From Parcubacteria group bacterium GW2011_GWC1_36_108 (GTDB lineage: Bacteria > Patescibacteriota > Minisyncoccia > Moranbacterales > GWC2-37-73), in contig LBRD01000001.1 of the NCBI GenBank assembly GCA_000991245.1, positions 135,467-177,804 of the forward strand: DNA of 42,338 nucleotides, written 5' to 3'. Under the pieces are notes generated by a model. The model searched no databases. It was not told where the DNA came from and worked only from the letters and a program-made list of their open reading frames with translations. Below, one piece after another: positions 8,031 to 42,338 of this stretch; the stretch's first letter is position 1, and each line of letters begins with the position of its first letter. The translations under genes and the position numbers were made by a program.

Positions 8031-8066
8031 TCCTCAAAGATAAAAGAGTTAAAAAAAAAGACTCTT

Positions 8067-9296
8067 TTATTTATACCTCAAAGCATCCAATGGGTCAATC
8101 TTGCTAGCACGACGTGCTGGAACAAGTCCAGTGAAGAATCCGACAATCCCGGAAAAGGCCAGAATTGCGAGAATAAACCAAGTAGGACTATAAAAAAGAC
8201 TCACTGATTGTCCACCAAATCTCACTGCTACCATATTAATGATGACGTTGAATCCTTGTCCTCCAAGCCAGCCAATTGCAACTCCGGCGCAACCACCCAA
8301 GAATCCCATAATTGCAGATTCCATAAAAAACATAACGGAAATACCCATATCGGAAGCTCCGATCGACTTCATAATTCCAATTTCTTCCGTTCTTTCAAGC
8401 AGTGTGATTGTCATTGTATTAAACATACCAATAGCAGAAACAACCAAAGCAATAATTCCAAAAAGCATCAGGATTATCTGCACGACTTTAAAAATTTGGT
8501 TTGCTTGATCAACAGTGTCAGAAAGAGATGAAACCAAAAGGCCATATTCCAAAATTGCATCTCGAATAATACCCATTTCCCCATTTGATTTTGTCTTAAC
8601 TTTAACCTGTCCATATTTATCAATTTTCAAATCATTAAGAGATGCTTTGTTGACGTATACAACGTTGTCCTCGCCTTCAATAACTCCAATAATTTTGTAT
8701 CGTATTTCACTGTCAACTTTTTCAAAATCACTTTGCGATTGAGCATCAGAAGTGTTGCCCGCGTCATCAACAGTGGCAGCAGCTCTTGGCACAAAAAACG
8801 AAAATGTCATATCCTTTCCAAGCATTTCATCAACAGTTTTACCAAAAACTTGTCCAACTGCGCTGCTTATAACAATGCCGTTTTGATTATCATCGCTAAG
8901 CAGCACACCCTTGCTTGGTTTGTATCCACCCAATTTCAAAAACGAAGGCTTGGAACCGATAGTAACCAAGTCAGCAGAAAGATCATCCAGATGTCCTTGT
9001 GTGGTAATTTGAAAGGCGGGACTCACATCTTCAACCCCTGGCATAGCTTCGATTTTTTTGATCATTTCATTATCCAAAGAAACAATTCCTGATTTTGCCT
9101 CAGAAATATCCAAAGTCAAAAGAGAATCCGATGTTGTGATTCTTTCCAGCAAAGTCTTTTGAAGTCCATAACCCAAAGAAACCAAAAACAAAATAGCACC
9201 AATACCAATACTCATACCCAAAACAGTCAAAAGCGTTCGAGAAGTTCTCGCTTTAAACATTCTGGTTGATAATTTGAACAAATCTATAAATCTCAT
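8067..9296 (-). CDS. ABC transporter permease, MacB/FtsX-like
   Basis: 409 aa. It has an N-terminal TM, a large extracytoplasmic domain, and a C-terminal FtsX-type 3-TM bundle ending in PARRASKIDPLDALRY. Confidence 0.85.
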   Translation of the reverse strand: MRFIDLFKLSTRMFKARTSRTLLTVLGMSIGIGAILFLVSLGYGLQKTLLERITTSDSLLTLDISEAKSGIVSLDNEMIKKIEAMPGVEDVSPAFQITTQGHLDDLSADLVTIGSKPSFLKLGGYKPSKGVLLSDDNQNGIVISSAVGQVFGKTVDEMLGKDMTFSFFVPRAAATVDDAGNTSDAQSQSDFEKVDSEIRYKIIGVIEGEDNVVYVNKASLNDLKIDKYGQVKVKTKSNGEMGIIRDAILEYGLLVSSLSDTVDQANQIFKVVQIILMLFGIIALVVSAIGMFNTMTITLLERTEEIGIMKSIGASDMGISVMFFMESAIMGFLGGCAGVAIGWLGGQGFNVIINMVAVRFGGQSVSLFYSPTWFILAILAFSGIVGFFTGLVPARRASKIDPLDALRYK

Positions 9297-9349
9297 ATTT
9301 TATTTTTTTGTAATTTCCTACTTTTGTAAATTTTTGTATGTTTGCAAGC

Positions 9350-10660
9350 TTACGCTGAATATTTTAATAACATTATAAGTTCCACCTCACGAACAACCTT
9401 TTCAGCGCTGCCTTTGTATAATCCTGCGCCACCTAGCTTCTTTGATGTATCAAGTCGTTGCTGAAGCCCAAATCTATCAATCCTGTTTTCCACTCGCAAT
9501 TTTATAAATGACCTGAATCGAAGCGTTATTTCATCATCAAGTTTCAAATGATACAAGTCTGCCAAATAATCTGAAAATGTAATGATATTTGTTTCTTGAT
9601 CGCTGTTTAAAATTTCAGCTTGCGACAAGATTTTTTTCGTGCGATCAGTAAACGACATTGCTCTTATTTTGTTCCAGCCAGCACCACCTTTGTCAAAATC
9701 CAAATCCAATTTTTCTGAAAGTCCCGTGCTATCAATATTTTTAAACAAAAATTCTTTCAACAAATTTTCAGCAGCACCAACCTGCTCCTCATTGAGTTCC
9801 GAAATAATATGCGTAAGCAATTGCTTTGCTTTAAAGGGAATGAGCAAAACTCCAACCTGTTGCAATGACAAATTTTTAAATGTGCGCATCAAAAGTTTAA
9901 GCTCGCTAGAAATTTCATCTGGCGTCGCAGCAACATCTTTGATCAACGCTTCCTTAGGACGCTTGTCGTGATTTACTTCCTCACTAACTTTCTTTCCGTC
10001 CTTCATATGAATGATGCGATCGGCATAAATAAGGTGCTCCGGATTATGAGTAACCATAATCAACGTTTTCTTGTCAATTTCATTGATTTCTTTAAAAATA
10101 TCCAGCACATTTTGCGCAGATTCACTGTCCAAATTCCCCACGGGTTCATCAGCCAAAATAATCTCTGGATTGTTTACCAAGGCTCGAGCGATAGAAACAC
10201 GTTGTTTTTGACCACCAGAAAGTTGTGCCGGAAATTTATCGGCCTGCTCGGAAATGCTAAAACGTCTCAAAAGTTCCATTGCTTTTTCGCGCCTTTCTTT
10301 CAGATTTTCACCACGAAAAACTTTAGGCAAACAAACATTGTCCAAAACAGTCAGCGTTTCAATAAGATAAAAGGCTTGAAAAACCATTCCTACTCGTGTC
10401 TGATGAAACTCCACCGTTTCCCGCTTTGTCATTTGTGCAAGATTTTTTCCCTGCACAATCACATCGCCATACGTCGGAGCCTGAAGTCCTGAAATTCCAT
10501 ACAATAAAGTCGACTTCCCACAACCAGAAGGTCCATAAATAATAATATATTCTTCAGGATAAATTTCCACACTAACACCATCCAACGAACGAACTTCGTT
10601 GGACTTTCCTTTGTTATATATAACCCTGAGCTGGTCAACCTTTATACATGGCTCGATCAT
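9350..10660 (-). CDS. ABC transporter ATP-binding protein (MacB/LolD-like) with a C-terminal extension of about 200 aa and unknown function
   Basis: 436 aa with Walker A GPSGCGKST, signature LSGGQKQR and Walker B ILADEP. Residues from about 235 to 436 have no motif I recognise. Confidence 0.9.
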   Translation of the reverse strand: MIEPCIKVDQLRVIYNKGKSNEVRSLDGVSVEIYPEEYIIIYGPSGCGKSTLLYGISGLQAPTYGDVIVQGKNLAQMTKRETVEFHQTRVGMVFQAFYLIETLTVLDNVCLPKVFRGENLKERREKAMELLRRFSISEQADKFPAQLSGGQKQRVSIARALVNNPEIILADEPVGNLDSESAQNVLDIFKEINEIDKKTLIMVTHNPEHLIYADRIIHMKDGKKVSEEVNHDKRPKEALIKDVAATPDEISSELKLLMRTFKNLSLQQVGVLLIPFKAKQLLTHIISELNEEQVGAAENLLKEFLFKNIDSTGLSEKLDLDFDKGGAGWNKIRAMSFTDRTKKILSQAEILNSDQETNIITFSDYLADLYHLKLDDEITLRFRSFIKLRVENRIDRFGLQQRLDTSKKLGGAGLYKGSAEKVVREVELIMLLKYSA

Positions 10661-32036: not shown

Positions 32037-32147
32037 ATTTTCATTCCCATTGCACAAAACTGAGTTCGCCTATCTTCCCGAATCTCAGTCTTGATTTGTA
32101 ATTATTCATACGCAACACTTCAAACTGTCTTTCAATTAATTTCACAA

Positions 32148-32177
32148 TTGACAATTCATCAGTCTAGCTGTATAAAT
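32148..32177 (+). promoter_or_regulatory. Near-consensus sigma-70 promoter for the 124-aa plus-strand ORF
   Basis: TTGACA (32148-32153), a 17-nt spacer, then TATAAAT (32171-32177). Confidence 0.6.
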
Positions 32178-32239
32178 ATATTTCAACAGTTACTTCACAA
32201 AAAACCGCCAAAAGGCGCAAATATGAAAGGAGAACACCC

Positions 32240-32614
32240 GTGAAAACATTACTTATCAACGAAACTGAAAACCCCGAGGAACTTAACATGATGCTTGGTT
32301 TTGACCTTGGTCTGAGAGAATACCAAGTTAGGGCCATTTTTCCATCGCTCGAATATGCATTAATGGTTCTCAAAAAAAGTCCTGGGGAATTCAAATTTAT
32401 CGTAATTGAGCCTCACAAAGAAATGCTCATAAAAAAATTCGCTATGATTAACACCCTGTCTAAAAATTTTCCAGGCATTCCAATCCTAATTATAGGCGAA
32501 TCACGATTTACACGTAGTAACTTACTAAATAATAAGCTAAACAACTTACACCACTTTGAAACACTGGAAGGTGCAGCACGCTTCATTGCAATACATCCAA
32601 ATTCAAAAGAATAA
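32240..32614 (+). CDS. Hypothetical 124-aa protein with a (beta-alpha)5 receiver-like pattern lacking the phospho-acceptor Asp
   Basis: It has a GTG start 5 nt after the RBS AAAGGAGAA (32226-32234), its own promoter and its own terminator. The alternating hydrophobic-strand/helix pattern is LLINETE, VRAIF, FIVIEPH, ILIIGES. Confidence 0.6.
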   Translation: MKTLLINETENPEELNMMLGFDLGLREYQVRAIFPSLEYALMVLKKSPGEFKFIVIEPHKEMLIKKFAMINTLSKNFPGIPILIIGESRFTRSNLLNNKLNNLHHFETLEGAARFIAIHPNSKE

Positions 32615-34097: not shown

Positions 34098-34163
34098 GAA
34101 AACTGTAGTAACTTGACATTAACATAACAATAAACGCCAAAAAAGGCAAAAAGGAGAATCTCC

Positions 34164-34463
34164 ATGAAATACAAGCTGACACAACAAACAGTGATATGCC
34201 TTGACGAAATATTGGAAAGTATTAAGATGCGCACTATTAGCGCGAAACAGCGTGAATGGCTAAAAGAAAAAATCAAGGAAATAAAAGAAGGTCAGTTTTC
34301 AGTTGCAGACTACGAACAGAAATTGAATAAGATATTAACATCAATGCATAGACAGGTAGAAATTAGCTATTCTCATAATTCAAACCACTGTGAAACTTTT
34401 GCTTTTCTTCACATGAAATTGCTGCACATTTTTGAAAATCGTTTTTTTATAGAAAAAAAATAA
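34164..34463 (+). CDS. Hypothetical 99-aa, mostly helical protein
   Basis: The ATG lies 5 nt after the RBS AAGGAGAA. The gene has its own promoter and a strong terminator. No family recognised. Confidence 0.55.
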   Translation: MKYKLTQQTVICLDEILESIKMRTISAKQREWLKEKIKEIKEGQFSVADYEQKLNKILTSMHRQVEISYSHNSNHCETFAFLHMKLLHIFENRFFIEKK

Positions 34464-39711: not shown

Positions 39712-41670
39712 TTATTTCAGCTGCAATTTCCGCAAAGTTGAAATCTCATCGCGGATAAGGGCGGCTTTTTCAAATTCCATTGAACGGGCGGCATTTTTCA
39801 TCTCTTTCTCTTTTTGTTTAATATACCCAGCGATGTCTTCCAATGATTCCAGACGAGAAAAATCAAGCGGTATTTCAGGATTTATTTCGTGATCCACGAT
39901 TGATTTAATATTTTTTTCAATTGTTTTAGGAGTAATGTGATGTTTTTTATTATATTCTGCTTGAATTTTTCTACGTCTATTTGTTTCATCAATCGCCCGC
40001 TTCATTGAACCAGTAATGTTGTCTGCATACAGAATAACACGGCCATTAATATTTCTGGCAGCTCGTCCAATTGTTTGAATAAGCGAGGTTTCACTCCGCA
40101 AAAAGCCTTCCTTATCAGCATCCAAAATTGCTACCGAAGAAACTTCGGGAAGATCCAAACCTTCGCGCAAAAGATTAACCCCCACCAACACATCAAAATC
40201 TCCTTTACGAAGTCCTTGCAAAATAAGCACGCGATCCAATGTATCCACATCTGAATGCAAATATTCGCAGCGCACACCATGTTCTTTCAAAAATTCCGAA
40301 AGGTCTTCTGCCATCTTTTTTGTAAGTGCAGTAATAAGCACTCGCTCTTTTTTTGCGACAACTTTTTCAATTTCAGCCAGCACATCTTTCACTTGACCCT
40401 TAGCTGATTTAATAATAATTTCCGGATCAAGCAATCCAGTTGGTCGAATTATCTGCTGCGCCACACTACTTGAATGCTCTTTCTCATAAGCTGCTGGCGT
40501 GGCTGTGGTAAAAATCATTTGATTAATACGCTCTTCAAATTCAGGAAATTTAAGCGGCCTGTTATCATATGCACTTGGCAAACGAAAACCATTTTCAATA
40601 AGTGCGTTTTTTCGAGAACGATCACCAGCATACATTGCATTTAATTGAGGAATTGTCACATGCGATTCATCAATGATCATCAAAAAATCTTTTGGGAAAT
40701 AATCCACCAAAGTATACGGCGGCTCTCCAGCCTCGCGCTCAGTCAAATAGCGCGAATAATTTTCAATTCCATTGCAATATCCAACTTCGCGCATCATCTC
40801 CAAATCTTGTTTGGTACGCCTTTCAATTCTTTCGGCCTCCAATAATTTATTATTATCTCTAAAATATTTCACGCGCTCTTTAGCCTCCCTTTCAATTTCA
40901 CCTAGCGCTTCTTTCATTACAGGTTCCGGTACCACAAAATGTTTAGCTGGATATATCAGGGTTTTTTCAAGCTCACCCAATTTTTCTCCTGTCAAAAAAT
41001 CATATTCATAAATACGAGCAACCTTGCCTTCTTTCAATTCAATGCGCGTGACAATTTCTCGACTCGGCGTCATCACCTCAATCGTGTCACCTGTCACTCT
41101 AAATTTTCCACGCGCCAAAACATCGCTGCGATGATATTGCATATCAATCATTCCTTTCATCAACTCCTCACGATTTTGTTTTGCACCGACAATAACCTCA
41201 GCTGTTCCTTCACGATAATAATCCGGTGAACCTAATCCATAAATACATGAAACTGACGCCACGATGATTACATCTCGTCTCGACAAAAGTCCGCTAGTGG
41301 CAGCGTGACGCAAGCGATCAATCTCTTCATTTATTTGCACTTCTTTTTCAATATAAGTATCAGACGAAGAAATATAAGCCTCTGGTTGATAATAGTCGTA
41401 ATATGAAACAAAATATTCCACTGCATTTTTTGGAAAAAAGGTTCGAAACTCTTGCACTAATTGCGCCGCCAAAGTTTTATTCGGCGCAATCACCAAGGTC
41501 GGCTTCTGCACATGCTCAATCACATTCGCCATCGTAAAAGTTTTTCCAGAACCTGTTACCCCCATCAATGTTTGAAATTTTTCCCTATGTTCCAAGCCAT
41601 AGATAAGAGCCTCAATCGCACTTGGTTGATCACCTGCAGGCGTAAATTTTTTATCCAGTTCAAATTTCAT
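39712..41670 (-). CDS. uvrB: Excinuclease ABC subunit B
   Basis: 652 aa with Walker A GVTGSGKT, DESH, helicase motifs, and a C-terminal UVR domain (MEFEKAALIRDEISTLRK). Confidence 0.97.
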   Translation of the reverse strand: MKFELDKKFTPAGDQPSAIEALIYGLEHREKFQTLMGVTGSGKTFTMANVIEHVQKPTLVIAPNKTLAAQLVQEFRTFFPKNAVEYFVSYYDYYQPEAYISSSDTYIEKEVQINEEIDRLRHAATSGLLSRRDVIIVASVSCIYGLGSPDYYREGTAEVIVGAKQNREELMKGMIDMQYHRSDVLARGKFRVTGDTIEVMTPSREIVTRIELKEGKVARIYEYDFLTGEKLGELEKTLIYPAKHFVVPEPVMKEALGEIEREAKERVKYFRDNNKLLEAERIERRTKQDLEMMREVGYCNGIENYSRYLTEREAGEPPYTLVDYFPKDFLMIIDESHVTIPQLNAMYAGDRSRKNALIENGFRLPSAYDNRPLKFPEFEERINQMIFTTATPAAYEKEHSSSVAQQIIRPTGLLDPEIIIKSAKGQVKDVLAEIEKVVAKKERVLITALTKKMAEDLSEFLKEHGVRCEYLHSDVDTLDRVLILQGLRKGDFDVLVGVNLLREGLDLPEVSSVAILDADKEGFLRSETSLIQTIGRAARNINGRVILYADNITGSMKRAIDETNRRRKIQAEYNKKHHITPKTIEKNIKSIVDHEINPEIPLDFSRLESLEDIAGYIKQKEKEMKNAARSMEFEKAALIRDEISTLRKLQLK

Positions 41671-41678
41671 AGTAATTA

Positions 41679-41707
41679 ATATTACAACTGAAAACTAAAA
41701 ATGTCCA
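41679..41707 (-). promoter_or_regulatory. Candidate uvrB promoter (very short leader)
   Basis: The minus strand reads TGGACA (41707-41702), a 17-nt spacer, then TAATAT (41684-41679). The -10 box ends 8 nt before the ATG. Confidence 0.4.
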
Positions 41708-41718
41708 CTGAAATCAGT

Positions 41719-41748
41719 TTGACAATGATTCATATAAATTGATAAAAT
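41719..41748 (+). promoter_or_regulatory. Strong sigma-70-type promoter driving the plus-strand G+C-rich unit
   Basis: TTGACA (41719-41724), an 18-nt spacer, then TAAAAT (41743-41748) with an upstream TG (41740-41741), i.e. an extended -10. Confidence 0.55.
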
Positions 41749-41754
41749 AAAAAT

Positions 41755-42236
41755 ACAAAGTTGTTATCTTGCAAAGGAGAAAATAACCATGGAGTGGCCA
41801 ATAGTGTAATTACTCTATTTTATTTCTCAAAAGTCGCTTATCTCATCAAAGGAGGTGCAATATGAAAGAAAGAGGGTTCCAAGACAGAGACCCAACAGAA
41901 GCACGACCCAATGGCGATGGTTAAATTACGAGCTGATTTCCGAGTTGTTATCACTCAAAGGAGGAAACCACTATGCTCAGTGTGCAAATCGTAGCAATCG
42001 CGTAGAACATCGAGCGAGGCAGCTGGAGCCGAGGAGACTGCCAACCAGATTTTATCCATAGCATGGAGGATTGACAGAACCAGCAAATTCATAAGAGGAT
42101 TGCAACACAAGGACATAGCAATATCGGGCGAAACAAGAAGTCGCGAGTATCTGCCTCAACGAAGGCACAGTGCAAAAAACGCGCGCGACAAAAAACTCTG
42201 CCCACTTAAGGCGCTTTCCATTGCGAAAGCGCCTTT
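41755..42236 (+). ncRNA. Candidate novel non-coding or multi-mini-ORF RNA of about 480 nt. Class unknown.
   Basis: It is bounded by the promoter above and an 11-bp GC-rich hairpin at 42208-42235. It is visibly more G+C-rich than its surroundings and has no credible long ORF. It contains three ttatc-N-caaaggag modules, two cat-gaggattg-ca modules and at least 8 GGA motifs. Confidence 0.4.
42208..42235 (+). terminator. Strong hairpin closing the G+C-rich unit (no clean U-run)
   Basis: aaggcgctttc-cattgc-gaaagcgcctt. No T-run follows immediately on plus. On minus, a T-run begins only about 12 nt later. Confidence 0.45.
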
Positions 42237-42338
42237 ACTCAGTATAATCTAATCCACATATGAGCTTGAAACTGGCTTTTTCGTAAAAAGTCCTATTTGC
42301 TCAAATTATTAAACATTTCTTTCTTTTTCTTTTGCATT

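Follow-up and report, generated by a model that had tools for sequence, protein, structure and literature searches.

The window analysed here, i.e., a stretch of 42,338 nt from an uncultured groundwater bacterium of the Moranbacteria type within the candidate phyla radiation (CPR), holds near its right-hand edge a unit of about 485 nt, which makes up a 0.5-kb stretch between the genes uvrB and rpsF. On the left of the unit, uvrB is read from the minus strand and its promoter (TGGACA-17-TAATAT, 41679-41707) lies back to back with that of the unit. The -10 element of this promoter ends only 8 nt before the ATG of uvrB, so that uvrB would be leaderless or nearly so. This promoter is also the last block conserved with the sister species Ca. 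Moraniibacteriota UBA12142 (88% nucleotide identity), where the uvrB side (41630-41708) shows 85% identity and the similarity ends at 41708. On the right, the window closes on the end of an insertion sequence (IS; 42241-42338) lying outside the unit, about 1.38 kb long, encoding a 409-aa rve transposase on the minus strand and present in some strains only; its target duplication is TTACTC (42235-42240), it is inserted 5 nt from the unit, and the strains bearing it persist. In the IS-free alleles, the promoter of rpsF (TTGCCA-17-TATACT) directly follows the hairpin that ends the unit and leads into the operon rpsF-ssb-rpsR(-efp), the hairpin being located some 165 nt upstream of the rpsF ATG on the same strand. 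The leader of rpsF, a gene with a promoter of its own, is 106 nt long and 98% conserved in the sister species, where the unit is missing. The first-pass annotation correctly saw the divergent uvrB promoter on one flank and missed the neighbour on the other, the window edge being the IS and the true neighbour the rpsF operon. Elsewhere in the window, two more islets on the plus strand, namely ORFan genes of 124 and 99 aa, are also species-specific, and a neighbouring 172-aa protein falls into 3 clusters only among 5.8 billion proteins and hence offers no further relatives to compare.

The promoter of the unit, TTGACA-18-TG-n-TAAAAT, spans 41719-41748 on the plus strand (TTGACA 41719-41724, TG 41740-41741, TAAAAT 41743-41748). 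With 11 of the 12 consensus positions and an extended -10, it is the top promoter-like site on the plus strand of the 42-kb window and bears out the near-consensus, extended -10 promoter originally described as divergent from uvrB; judged from its position, transcription would start near 41755. In the sister species, too, a divergent promoter lies equally far from the conserved uvrB block, so that the promoter of the unit may simply be inherited. At the other end, on the same strand, the 11-bp hairpin initially noticed at 42208-42235 is indeed present and perfect, with the arms AAGGCGCTTTC (42208-42218) and GAAAGCGCCTT (42225-42235) 100% complementary around the loop CATTGC, 6 G-C pairs out of 11 and the tail TACTC (hairpin and tail, 42208-42240). 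Its occurrence exceeds chance: perfect hairpins of 11 bp or longer number 3 in the 42 kb, where shuffles predict 0.1. The 3' tail amounts to only TTTACTC and a consensus terminator scan made no call there, whereas runs of at least 5 T follow the other two perfect hairpins of the window as well as the terminator-like hairpins of related loci. The hairpin is likely the terminator of the unit, and probably a leaky one. Taken together, these signals support what was first proposed, i.e., a self-contained stretch running from promoter to hairpin, carrying repeated Shine-Dalgarno (SD)/start modules and coding for no protein. No MITE or terminal inverted repeats were seen at the borders of the unit, and the idea of a DnaA box or an origin was rejected, with one TTATCCATA only and no global strand switch.

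The three modules follow each other on the plus strand. Module 1 (41759-41809) comprises the box AGTTGTTATC (41759-41768), the SD AAAGGAG (41773-41779) and an ATG at 41789 opening the 6-codon mini-ORF MEWPIV, which ends at 41809; module 2 (41835-41924) comprises a GCTTATC box, the extended SD AAAGGAGGTG (41848-41857) and an ATG at 41862 opening the 20-codon mini-ORF MKERGFQDRDPTEARPNGDG; module 3 (41943-42005), a paralogue of module 1, comprises the same box AGTTGTTATC, the SD AAAGGAGG (41957-41964) and an ATG at 41973 opening the 10-codon mini-ORF MLSVQIVAIA. All three mini-ORFs lie where they had been annotated and, stop codons included, total 114 nt of the unit. Each module is complementary over 7-10 nt to the canonical 3' tail of 16S rRNA, with the ATG 6-9 nt downstream; the SD of module 2 reaches 10 nt, a figure that refers to the canonical tail, which may not be that of the host. 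Further SD-like purine motifs, with no start codon at SD distance, occur within 42019-42108, namely GGAGCCGAGGAG in a GGCAG/CTGCC loop (42019-42045), CATGGAGGATTGACA (from 42062) and CATAAGAGGATTGCA (from 42090). All SD-like motifs of the unit are on the plus strand and none on the minus strand. The unit has 3 copies of the arrangement AAGGAG-N4-11-ATG, for which dinucleotide shuffles give an expectation of 0.054 (3 copies being reached in 0 of 5000 shuffles), and CAAAGGAGG has 2 copies in the 42 kb, both within the unit.

Paralogy is firmest between modules 1 and 3, which share a 33-nt direct repeat (41759-41791 and 41943-41975; 79% identical, each copy ending in ATG) and, over some 56 nt, a gapped similarity whose score of 47 exceeds the null maximum of 30. 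For the middle module (41835-41864) the similarity is borderline only, its score being attained by 6-15 of 300 shuffles, and the spacing of the modules is irregular (75 and 109 nt). Of the threefold repetition claimed at first, the SD and ATG hold for all three modules and the strong similarity for modules 1 and 3. Between these two, the identical positions fall mainly in the box, the SD and the ATG, while the spacers and the sequence past the ATG have diverged, including frame-breaking indels of 2, 1 and 1 nt just after the ATG that leave the peptides unrelated. Since the initiation signals are kept and what follows is not, the modules look selected, and their sequence points to past selection on initiation signals rather than on peptides. 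About 90% of the host genes have no SD (33-35 of 38 gene starts without any), which makes three extended SDs inside 200 nt conspicuous; the few host genes that do have an SD carry one of the AAAGGAG type, as in the unit, so that host ribosomes are presumably able to read such sites. An origin of the minus strand from a 16S fragment was considered and rejected, the similarity being confined to the complement of the anti-SD.

The unit is non-coding and is neither a gene nor a recent pseudogene. An open frame of about 80 codons after a TAG had been reported at 42006-42250; it does exist, as some 85 codons at 41998-42252 following the TAG at 41995-41997 and in a frame differing from that of the MLSV mini-ORF, and its length is within chance for a T-poor sequence (p 0.07-0.18 versus shuffles). 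Three-base periodicity stands at shuffle level (chi2 of 3.6 for 41998-42252, 2.9 for 41862-42252 and 4.8 for the whole unit) compared with 255-nt windows of real genes, for which the median is 20.6 and the 5th percentile 9.8. Likewise, the codon score of the best frame lies between -0.02 and -0.28, where in-frame host codons average +0.37 (5th percentile +0.13), and its frames differ by at most 0.44, a contrast that is about 1.0 even in the window's ORFan genes. Alternative code 4 opens no frame. The six-frame search of the unit against 5.8 billion proteins returned no homologue at E<=1, Pfam and PHROGs gave no match to it, and back-translated pattern scans of genome and viral contigs, with confirmation by tblastn, found no homologue. 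Against 1.84 billion representatives, the 84-aa open frame had two matches only, both rejected as artefacts, i.e., tandem-repeat proteins aligned over 6-8 weak stretches. A JGI gene call spans exactly 41862-42252 with a listed product of only 20 residues, which is consistent with a call crossing the frame change. With periodicity, host codon signal and six-frame homologues all absent, the earlier statement that no credible long ORF exists is upheld.

Known RNA families were likewise not encountered. Rfam 15 (RNase P, tmRNA, 6S, SRP, CsrB/Rsm, riboswitches, leaders and large ncRNAs) gave 0 matches at gathering score anywhere in the window and, with the cut-off relaxed to E<=10 on 41600-42338, three chance-level hits only (mir-153, rox2 and ctRNA_p42d; 15-19 bits versus thresholds of 50-55), and ARAGORN found no tRNA or tmRNA; the first-pass annotation had called the unit a candidate novel RNA, and even at E<=10 no family contradicts it. 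A type III toxin-antitoxin RNA (ToxI-like) was rejected, the modules being 75 and 109 nt apart and partly similar only, with no toxin gene adjacent, as was a leader-peptide attenuator, there being no ORF beyond chance length between module 3 and the hairpin, and rpsF having its own promoter past the hairpin. Global folding gave no signal on either strand (z = -0.67 for the whole unit) and the 120-nt windows over 41760-42120 have z >= 0, such that the RNA is predicted to be unstructured apart from its 3' end. The sole significantly structured part, by sliding z-score, is the last ~115 nt, with a G+C-rich branched domain at 42126-42203 (plus strand; outer stem GGGCG/UGCCC, stem GUCGC/GCGAC and two inner hairpins; z = -3.4), which 0 of 200 shuffles fold as well. 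Upstream, an A+T-rich palindrome, AATAGTGTAATTACTCTATT, with TTTATTTCTC following it (together 41800-41829, plus strand), spans the stop of mini-ORF 1 and may form a weak, attenuator-like hairpin, and the UUUCUC after it could pair with the first SD, in a fold that is not significant (z = -0.95). In the predicted ensemble, the accessibility of the SDs is unremarkable (unpaired probability 0.44-0.58 versus a mean of 0.47), and the GGA/SD-like motifs scatter from 0.16 to 0.85 around that overall mean with no preference for loops.

Regarding composition, G+C reaches 48.4% in 41900-42236 versus 36.8% in the window and 21-41% in other intergenic regions, and 32.6% in 41719-41899; the G+C richness first ascribed to the entire unit applies to the former part and not to the latter. 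Non-coding DNA of 48% G+C within an A+T-rich genome argues against old junk. GGA occurs 11 times on the plus strand, in line with the at least 8 motifs counted initially, and this is no excess, i.e., 22/kb versus about 20/kb on the coding strand of host genes, the enrichment being limited to motifs of the GGAG/GGAGG type.

The distribution of the unit is narrow. It is 100% identical in 21 same-species contigs, which as such offer no covariation or selection signal, and it is absent at the syntenic site of the sister species, which co-occurs in the same samples, as well as in 8 further sister-species contigs. In its place the sister holds two unrelated genes, namely an M23 peptidase gene and a 348-aa gene, for which tblastx detected no similarity to the unit; the uvrB-rpsF interval is a hot-spot of replacement. 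At the DNA level, searches relied on exact patterns or on blastn, which limits their sensitivity: among phages and plasmids blastn found nothing similar, the module pattern had 46 matches in species-representative genomes, all single, in unrelated taxa and with no likeness past the pattern, and three patterns scanned in viral contigs brought up nothing resembling the unit. For the three-SD architecture in metagenomes, among the at least 118 matches listed, one is an identical copy and none other resembles the unit, those inspected among the matches listed being tandem repeats. Judging from these collections, the unit appears restricted to one species. Its absence from the sole close relative and elsewhere leaves the candidate novel RNA without comparative support; conservation of the modules in relatives, on which the annotation had staked it, was not seen, albeit in the weaker sense that this relative lacks the unit altogether. 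A conserved housekeeping or lineage-wide ncRNA was rejected, the syntenic site of the sister being devoid of it and the pattern scans empty.

Of the four readings offered by the first-pass annotation, namely a protein sponge, an anti-SD or ribosome-engaging RNA, a micro-peptide transcript and a decayed gene, the ribosome-engaging one fits the anatomy best. The unit is tentatively read, with less than even confidence, as a species-specific, unstructured, purine-rich transcript engaging 30S subunits via its SD/start modules. The strong sigma-70-type promoter, back to back with that of uvrB, would start transcription; the first ~370 nt of the RNA would be purine-rich and essentially unstructured, bearing the three Gram-positive-style initiation modules plus several shorter SD-like motifs, and the RNA would terminate in the G+C-rich branched domain and the 11-bp hairpin. 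If active at all, the unit would recruit 30S subunits or initiating ribosomes at the modules, the outcome being that the mini-ORFs of 6, 20 and 10 codons are translated in a start-and-stop manner and that ribosomes are loaded or titrated; its action would depend neither on a folded RNA nor on a long protein or specific peptides. Counting against this reading are the absence from the co-occurring sister, the lack of anything similar in the collections searched, SDs no more accessible than their surroundings and the poor U-tract of the terminator.

The main competitor is that the unit is non-functional DNA, recently acquired or left over, whose signals worked in a donor or ancestor and are useless now. 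The two unrelated genes at the site in the sister, the lack of homologues in the collections searched, a composition foreign to the host, the tolerance of an IS 5 nt away, the 124-aa and 99-aa ORFan islets likewise confined to the species and a promoter possibly just inherited all make this a substantial, if still doubtful, possibility. Yet foreign DNA picked up at random would in all likelihood encode protein, and no periodicity is found here; neutral high-G+C non-coding DNA should decay in an A+T-rich genome; and the promoter, three SD+ATG modules and hairpin are intact, with the order and strand that an expression unit should have. Alternatively, such signals could make up an upstream leader and second promoter of rpsF-ssb-rpsR-efp, ribosome loading tuning the read-through of a leaky terminator. 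The hairpin placed directly before the rpsF promoter in IS-free alleles, ~165 nt from the ATG on the same strand, its TTTACTC tail where host terminators have runs of at least 5 T, and the Bacteroidia precedent of bS6/bS18/bS21 and the extended SD of rpsU (PMC7797042, PMC9976891), this host being SD-poor as well, would suit such a role, which is nonetheless improbable, as rpsF keeps its own promoter and leader, 98% conserved, in a sister devoid of the unit and as strains with a 1.4-kb IS in between persist. The polycistronic micro-peptide mRNA, for which the 6-, 20- and 10-residue peptides would be the functional products, is just as unlikely. Every mini-ORF does have a strong SD at 6-9 nt, and the 20-codon one has a host-like codon score (+0.22, not significant at such length), but the paralogous modules 1 and 3 encode unrelated peptides with frame-breaking indels after the ATG, there are no homologues and no adjacent modification or export genes, and the mini-ORFs occupy 114 nt of ~485.

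Readings centred on a bound protein, a former gene or a fold fare less well. For a CsrB/RsmZ-like sponge of a CsrA-type GGA-binding protein speak the 11 GGA on the plus strand, one of them within ACAAGGACA, which is close to the CsrA SELEX consensus. With a GGA density equal to that of the host coding strand, motifs not predicted in hairpin loops and no CsrB/Rsm model match at E<=10, this proposal is very unlikely; tblastn with two CsrA sequences found no csrA match in ~70 kb of host and sister DNA, too small a share of a genome of ~1 Mb to bear on the whole. In its favour, csrA has been reported among the highly expressed genes of ultra-small groundwater prokaryotes (PMC9938205). Equally little credence goes to a decayed protein-coding gene, running from the ATG of module 2 through one frameshift and one TAG to a product of ~130 aa: frame 0 has one stop in 128 codons and the JGI call covers exactly 41862-42252, against which stand the missing 3-base periodicity, codon scores lower than in 95% of real genes together with a small frame contrast, an open length within chance (p 0.03-0.18), no six-frame homologue at E<=1 and empty Pfam and PHROGs searches. 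A large structured RNA, whether a divergent known class or a new ribozyme-like class, is the least probable and is largely refuted; a G+C-rich 3' island in an A+T-rich genome and a significantly folding 3' domain speak for it, whereas Rfam and ARAGORN came out empty, the whole unit folds at z = -0.67 and the windows over 41760-42120 have z >= 0.

The ribosome-engaging reading can be narrowed to a decoy or sensor RNA for ribosomes with a free anti-SD, whose capture at the extended SD+ATG modules would, via the leaky hairpin, link their abundance to rpsF-ssb-rpsR transcription; so narrowed, it is a long shot. The anti-SD of Bacteroidia is hidden by three proteins, bS6, bS18 and bS21, and feedback on rpsU makes use of an extended SD (PMC7797042, PMC9976891). 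Were the narrowed version true, the unit would be a stand-alone RNA counterpart of this feedback loop, adjoining genes for ribosomal proteins that hide the anti-SD in another SD-poor lineage, and a first hint of anti-SD gating outside Bacteroidia. More generally, if expressed and bound by 30S subunits, it would be a rare bacterial RNA made of decoy initiation sites in a mostly SD-free CPR organism, making SD use in CPR bacteria an experimentally approachable question. The value of the analysis also lies in ruling out the known-RNA, pseudogene and CsrB-like readings and in correcting the context, i.e., the IS end, the rpsF operon and the replacement hot-spot.

Compared with known systems, the unit resembles CsrB/RsmY/RsmZ in being a stand-alone, promoter-to-terminator non-coding RNA with repeated purine-rich GGA motifs and apparent internal duplication; unlike them, it repeats a full initiation module (7-10-nt SD and ATG) rather than a hairpin-loop GGA, at irregular spacing, without GGA excess or Rfam match. 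A second parallel is STAB-SD, the 5' stabiliser element of Bacillus thuringiensis cry3A. Similarly, the ribosome protects the hbs mRNA of B. subtilis from RNase J1 (PMC5737220). Here as there, an extended SD of the (G/C)AAAGGAGG type near the 5' end would keep a 30S subunit or ribosome bound to the RNA, the first SD of the unit lying ~18-25 nt from the putative start; those elements, however, protect a long downstream coding sequence, whereas the unit has three modules and no long ORF before the hairpin. The erm/cat/tet leaders, which are leader-peptide attenuators of translation or transcription, share tandem short ORFs, each with its own strong SD, and a hairpin, here weak, that covers the stop of mini-ORF 1 and has a U-rich tract behind it, and an anti-SD-like UUUCUC may pair with the first SD; they differ in that the unit contains no regulated gene, its hairpins are weak and statistically unsupported, and conservation is lacking. 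The bar minigenes of phage lambda, two codons long, belong to a phage context and act through peptidyl-tRNA drop-off. They are alike as SD-led ORFs of a few codons acting by being translated and not via their peptide, and unlike in that the phage/viral searches and PHROGs show no sign of phage origin for the unit.

The last comparison concerns rpsU of Flavobacteriia, whose extended SD can be used only by ribosomes in which bS21/bS18/bS6 leave the anti-SD exposed (PMC7797042, PMC9976891). There, the SD precedes a genuine ribosomal-protein gene and is conserved class-wide, whereas the unit precedes the rpsF promoter, codes for nothing and is missing in the sister. CPR ribosomes are not known to sequester their anti-SD. 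What the two have in common are conspicuous extended SDs in a mostly SD-free organism, near ribosomal-protein genes, namely those of bS6 and bS18.

The unit considered here, a promoter-to-hairpin stretch on the + strand (41719-42240) with a predicted transcript of about 485 nt, occurs in two alleles, namely that of the window, which bears an insertion sequence (IS), and an IS-free one; contigs with exactly identical UvrB identify the host as an uncultured groundwater bacterium. Present in some strains only, the IS is about 1.38 kb long and encodes a single transposase (409 aa, rve family); it sits 5 nt past the hairpin that closes the unit, so that window positions 42241-42338 are one end of the IS; in the same-species locus L003, it occupies 8054-9430. 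Its ends are imperfect inverted repeats that include ATGAGCTTGAAA, and the insertion has duplicated 6 bp of target, TTACTC. Because of this polymorphism, many assemblies break at the IS and end 570-711 nt upstream of uvrB. Where the IS is missing, a promoter (TTGCCA-17-TATACT) comes straight after the hairpin and leads, through some 125 nt of leader, into rpsF-ssb-rpsR-efp, read in the same direction as the unit. The unit is thus flanked by two divergent operons, those of uvrB and rpsF.

Among species-representative genomes, the nearest relative is Candidatus Moraniibacteriota UBA12142, with 88% DNA identity over uvrB and its neighbours. Similarity to this sister species ends at 41708, where the uvrB promoter block finishes, and restarts only in the rpsF leader; the site of the unit is taken up by a cassette of 2.66 kb that encodes an M23 peptidase and a protein of 348/362 aa, an arrangement kept in 8/8 further sister-species contigs examined, some from the same samples, and without similarity to the unit. 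Since an unrelated cassette replaces the unit there, the unit is restricted to one species and its locus is a hot-spot of replacement. At the very start of uvrB, about 110 nt are inserted in the sister-species locus L091 (3791-4008), duplicating the 5' end of uvrB with its promoter block; the two copies are 82-85% identical to window 41603-41708. The rpsF 5' leader, just past the window end (9396-9291 of the IS-free locus L001), is 98% identical over 106 nt to L091 1132-1027, above the 85% of the rpsF coding DNA; it ends in an attenuator-like hairpin, CCACTAAAAGCAAGG...CTTGTTTGGTGG, with a run of seven T behind it, gives no Rfam match at E<=10 and is a candidate ribosomal-protein (S6/S18) autoregulatory leader.

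The promoter, hairpin and modules described in the first-pass annotation are all present. The promoter (TTGACA at 41719-41724, an 18-nt spacer with TG, and TAAAAT at 41743-41748) matches 11/12 positions plus an extended -10, and is the top promoter-like site on the + strand in a scan of the whole window. Some 486 nt downstream comes the perfect 11-bp hairpin (42208-42235, + strand), followed by a poor U-tract; perfect hairpins of this size number three in 42 kb, against 0.1 expected by chance. In the IS-bearing allele, TTGCGA from the hairpin loop and 3' arm and TATAAT from the first IS bases make up a further promoter-like site (42221-42248; 10/12, 16-nt spacer), directed into the IS and antisense to the transposase.

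Between promoter and hairpin, the motif AAGGAG-N4-11-ATG occurs three times, against 0.054 in dinucleotide shuffles, of which 0/5000 contained three. In each of the three modules (41759-41809, 41835-41924 and 41943-42005) the ATG sits 6-9 nt past a Shine-Dalgarno (SD) sequence and opens a mini-ORF, of 6, 20 and 10 codons, as annotated earlier; 7, 10 and 8 nt are complementary to the canonical 16S 3' tail, which may not be that of the host. Modules 1 and 3 are paralogous, the 33-nt segments 41759-41791 and 41943-41975 being 79% identical and both ending in ATG, with a gapped similarity spanning about 56 nt (score 47 vs a shuffle maximum of 30). The TTATC box, CAAAGGAGG and the ATG also occur in module 2 (41835-41864), whose alignment score is only borderline; within the window, CAAAGGAGG is confined to the modules. 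Identity between modules 1 and 3 is clustered in the box AGTTGTTATC, the SD and the ATG, and gives way after the ATG to 2-, 1- and 1-nt indels and unrelated peptides, so that any selection on the copies would have acted on the initiation signals and not on the peptides.

These modules stand out against a mostly SD-less background. About 33-35 of the 38 gene starts inspected (window and L001 1-10000) have no SD, their upstream regions being A+T-rich and free of GGAG, and promoter-like sites are frequently 0-50 nt from the start codon, the -10 of uvrB ending 8 nt before its ATG. Such distances suggest leaderless or short-leader mRNAs, and the host seems reliant on leaderless or SD-independent initiation. 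Exceptions with an AAAGGAG-type SD are a conserved gene downstream of uvrB and two + strand ORFan genes of 124 aa (32140-32614) and 99 aa (34100-34463), which lie on the strand opposite to their neighbours and whose 5' UTRs each contain a small GCC-A4-6-GGC hairpin. The sister species has a counterpart of neither: an unrelated 109-aa gene stands at the place of the latter, and no homologue of the former occurs in the sister loci examined. Both, like the unit, are species-specific islets of small size set between conserved core genes. Elsewhere, GAACCTTAYRAAC / AACTTTATAAAC repeats directly upstream of lexA-like, rodZ-like and efp genes (L001 900-937, 4495-4529 and 7609-7645), and of uvrB in a more distant relative (L011 5870-5960), may be bound by one and the same regulator, perhaps of the SOS type.

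The G+C richness first ascribed to the whole unit holds for 41900-42236 (48.4%, vs 36.8% for the window and 21-41% for other intergenic regions) and not for the rest. A and T make up 33% and 19% of this part, and the predicted RNA would be purine-rich (58-59% purines) and single-stranded. Folding is significant only in the 3' ~115 nt (z = -3.4), as a branched G+C-rich domain plus the hairpin; with 120-nt windows across 41760-42120 folding no better than shuffles and whole-unit z-scores of -0.67 (+ strand) and -1.3 (- strand), a globally folded RNA was rejected, and a large structured RNA is the least probable reading of all. A known RNA family was likewise discarded, Rfam giving no match at gathering score or at E<=10, and searches for tRNA and tmRNA found none in the unit.

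Nor does the unit look like a gene or a recent pseudogene. The long open frame reported earlier exists but truly spans 41998-42252; its length is within expectation for T-poor sequence. Three-base periodicity is absent, its chi2 being 3.6, whereas real-gene windows have 20.6 as their median and 9.8 at the 5th percentile. No frame has host-like codon usage, the between-frame contrast being small against about 1 for the ORFan genes of the window. Searched against 5.8 billion proteins, none of the six frames had a homologue at E<=1; no match came from Pfam, from PHROGs or from collections of phages and plasmids, nor from pattern and back-translation scans of genome, viral and, among the matches listed, metagenome contigs. 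From an exhaustive HMMER search with the 84-aa frame came two hits only, both long tandem-repeat proteins; they are regarded as artefacts, as each match rests on 6-8 weak stretches. An old JGI 'gene' (41862-42252, + strand; L003 9419-9809) begins at the module-2 ATG, stops where the open frame does and has a listed product of only 20 residues; it probably stems from a frameshift-tolerant gene caller, the coding tests being against a gene. A decayed gene is accordingly very improbable.

What remains is a real, well-delimited, non-coding orphan. Our tentative preference is for a species-specific stand-alone non-coding transcript acting, if at all, through 30S subunits or initiating ribosomes; engaged at the SD/start modules, these would start and stop on the mini-ORFs, with ribosome loading or titration as the outcome. 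The sequence features and the exclusions given so far are shown directly; we infer transcription, the transcript ends, ribosome binding and any role. Almost as likely, the unit is functionless DNA, recently acquired or left over in the hot-spot, although high G+C without periodicity in an A+T-rich genome argues against old junk as well as against a random foreign-gene fragment. An upstream leader or second promoter of the rpsF operon, reached through a leaky hairpin, is improbable, rpsF having its own promoter and conserved leader, the unit being missing from the sister species and IS-bearing strains being viable. Functional micro-peptides are equally doubtful, the peptides of the paralogous modules 1 and 3 being unrelated. 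A CsrA sponge, proposed for multiple GGA sites, is as remote as a decayed gene: GGA itself is in no excess over the host coding strand, and it is GGAG, GGAGG and AAGGAG that are enriched, about ten-fold and on the + strand only. The description behind the label 'candidate novel RNA' is confirmed and the label defensible, while four specific readings, namely a known family, a pseudogene, a CsrB-like sponge and functional peptides, are now unlikely.

Compared with known systems, the unit resembles CsrB/RsmZ in being modular, repeat-built and closed by a likely terminator, but differs in lacking GGA enrichment, loop presentation and a model match. Its SDs are similar to those of the STAB-SD/hbs 5' stabiliser (PMC5737220), but nothing long follows to be protected; tandem SD-led mini-ORFs are shared with erm- and cat-type leaders, but no regulated gene comes after. 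In the rpsU feedback loop of Flavobacteriia (PMC7797042, PMC9976891), extended SDs likewise occur in an SD-poor organism, and those of the unit adjoin bS6/bS18 genes; a link by this analogy would be highly speculative. At most, the unit adds a new, single-species member to small regulatory or mini-ORF transcripts, taken as one broad class.
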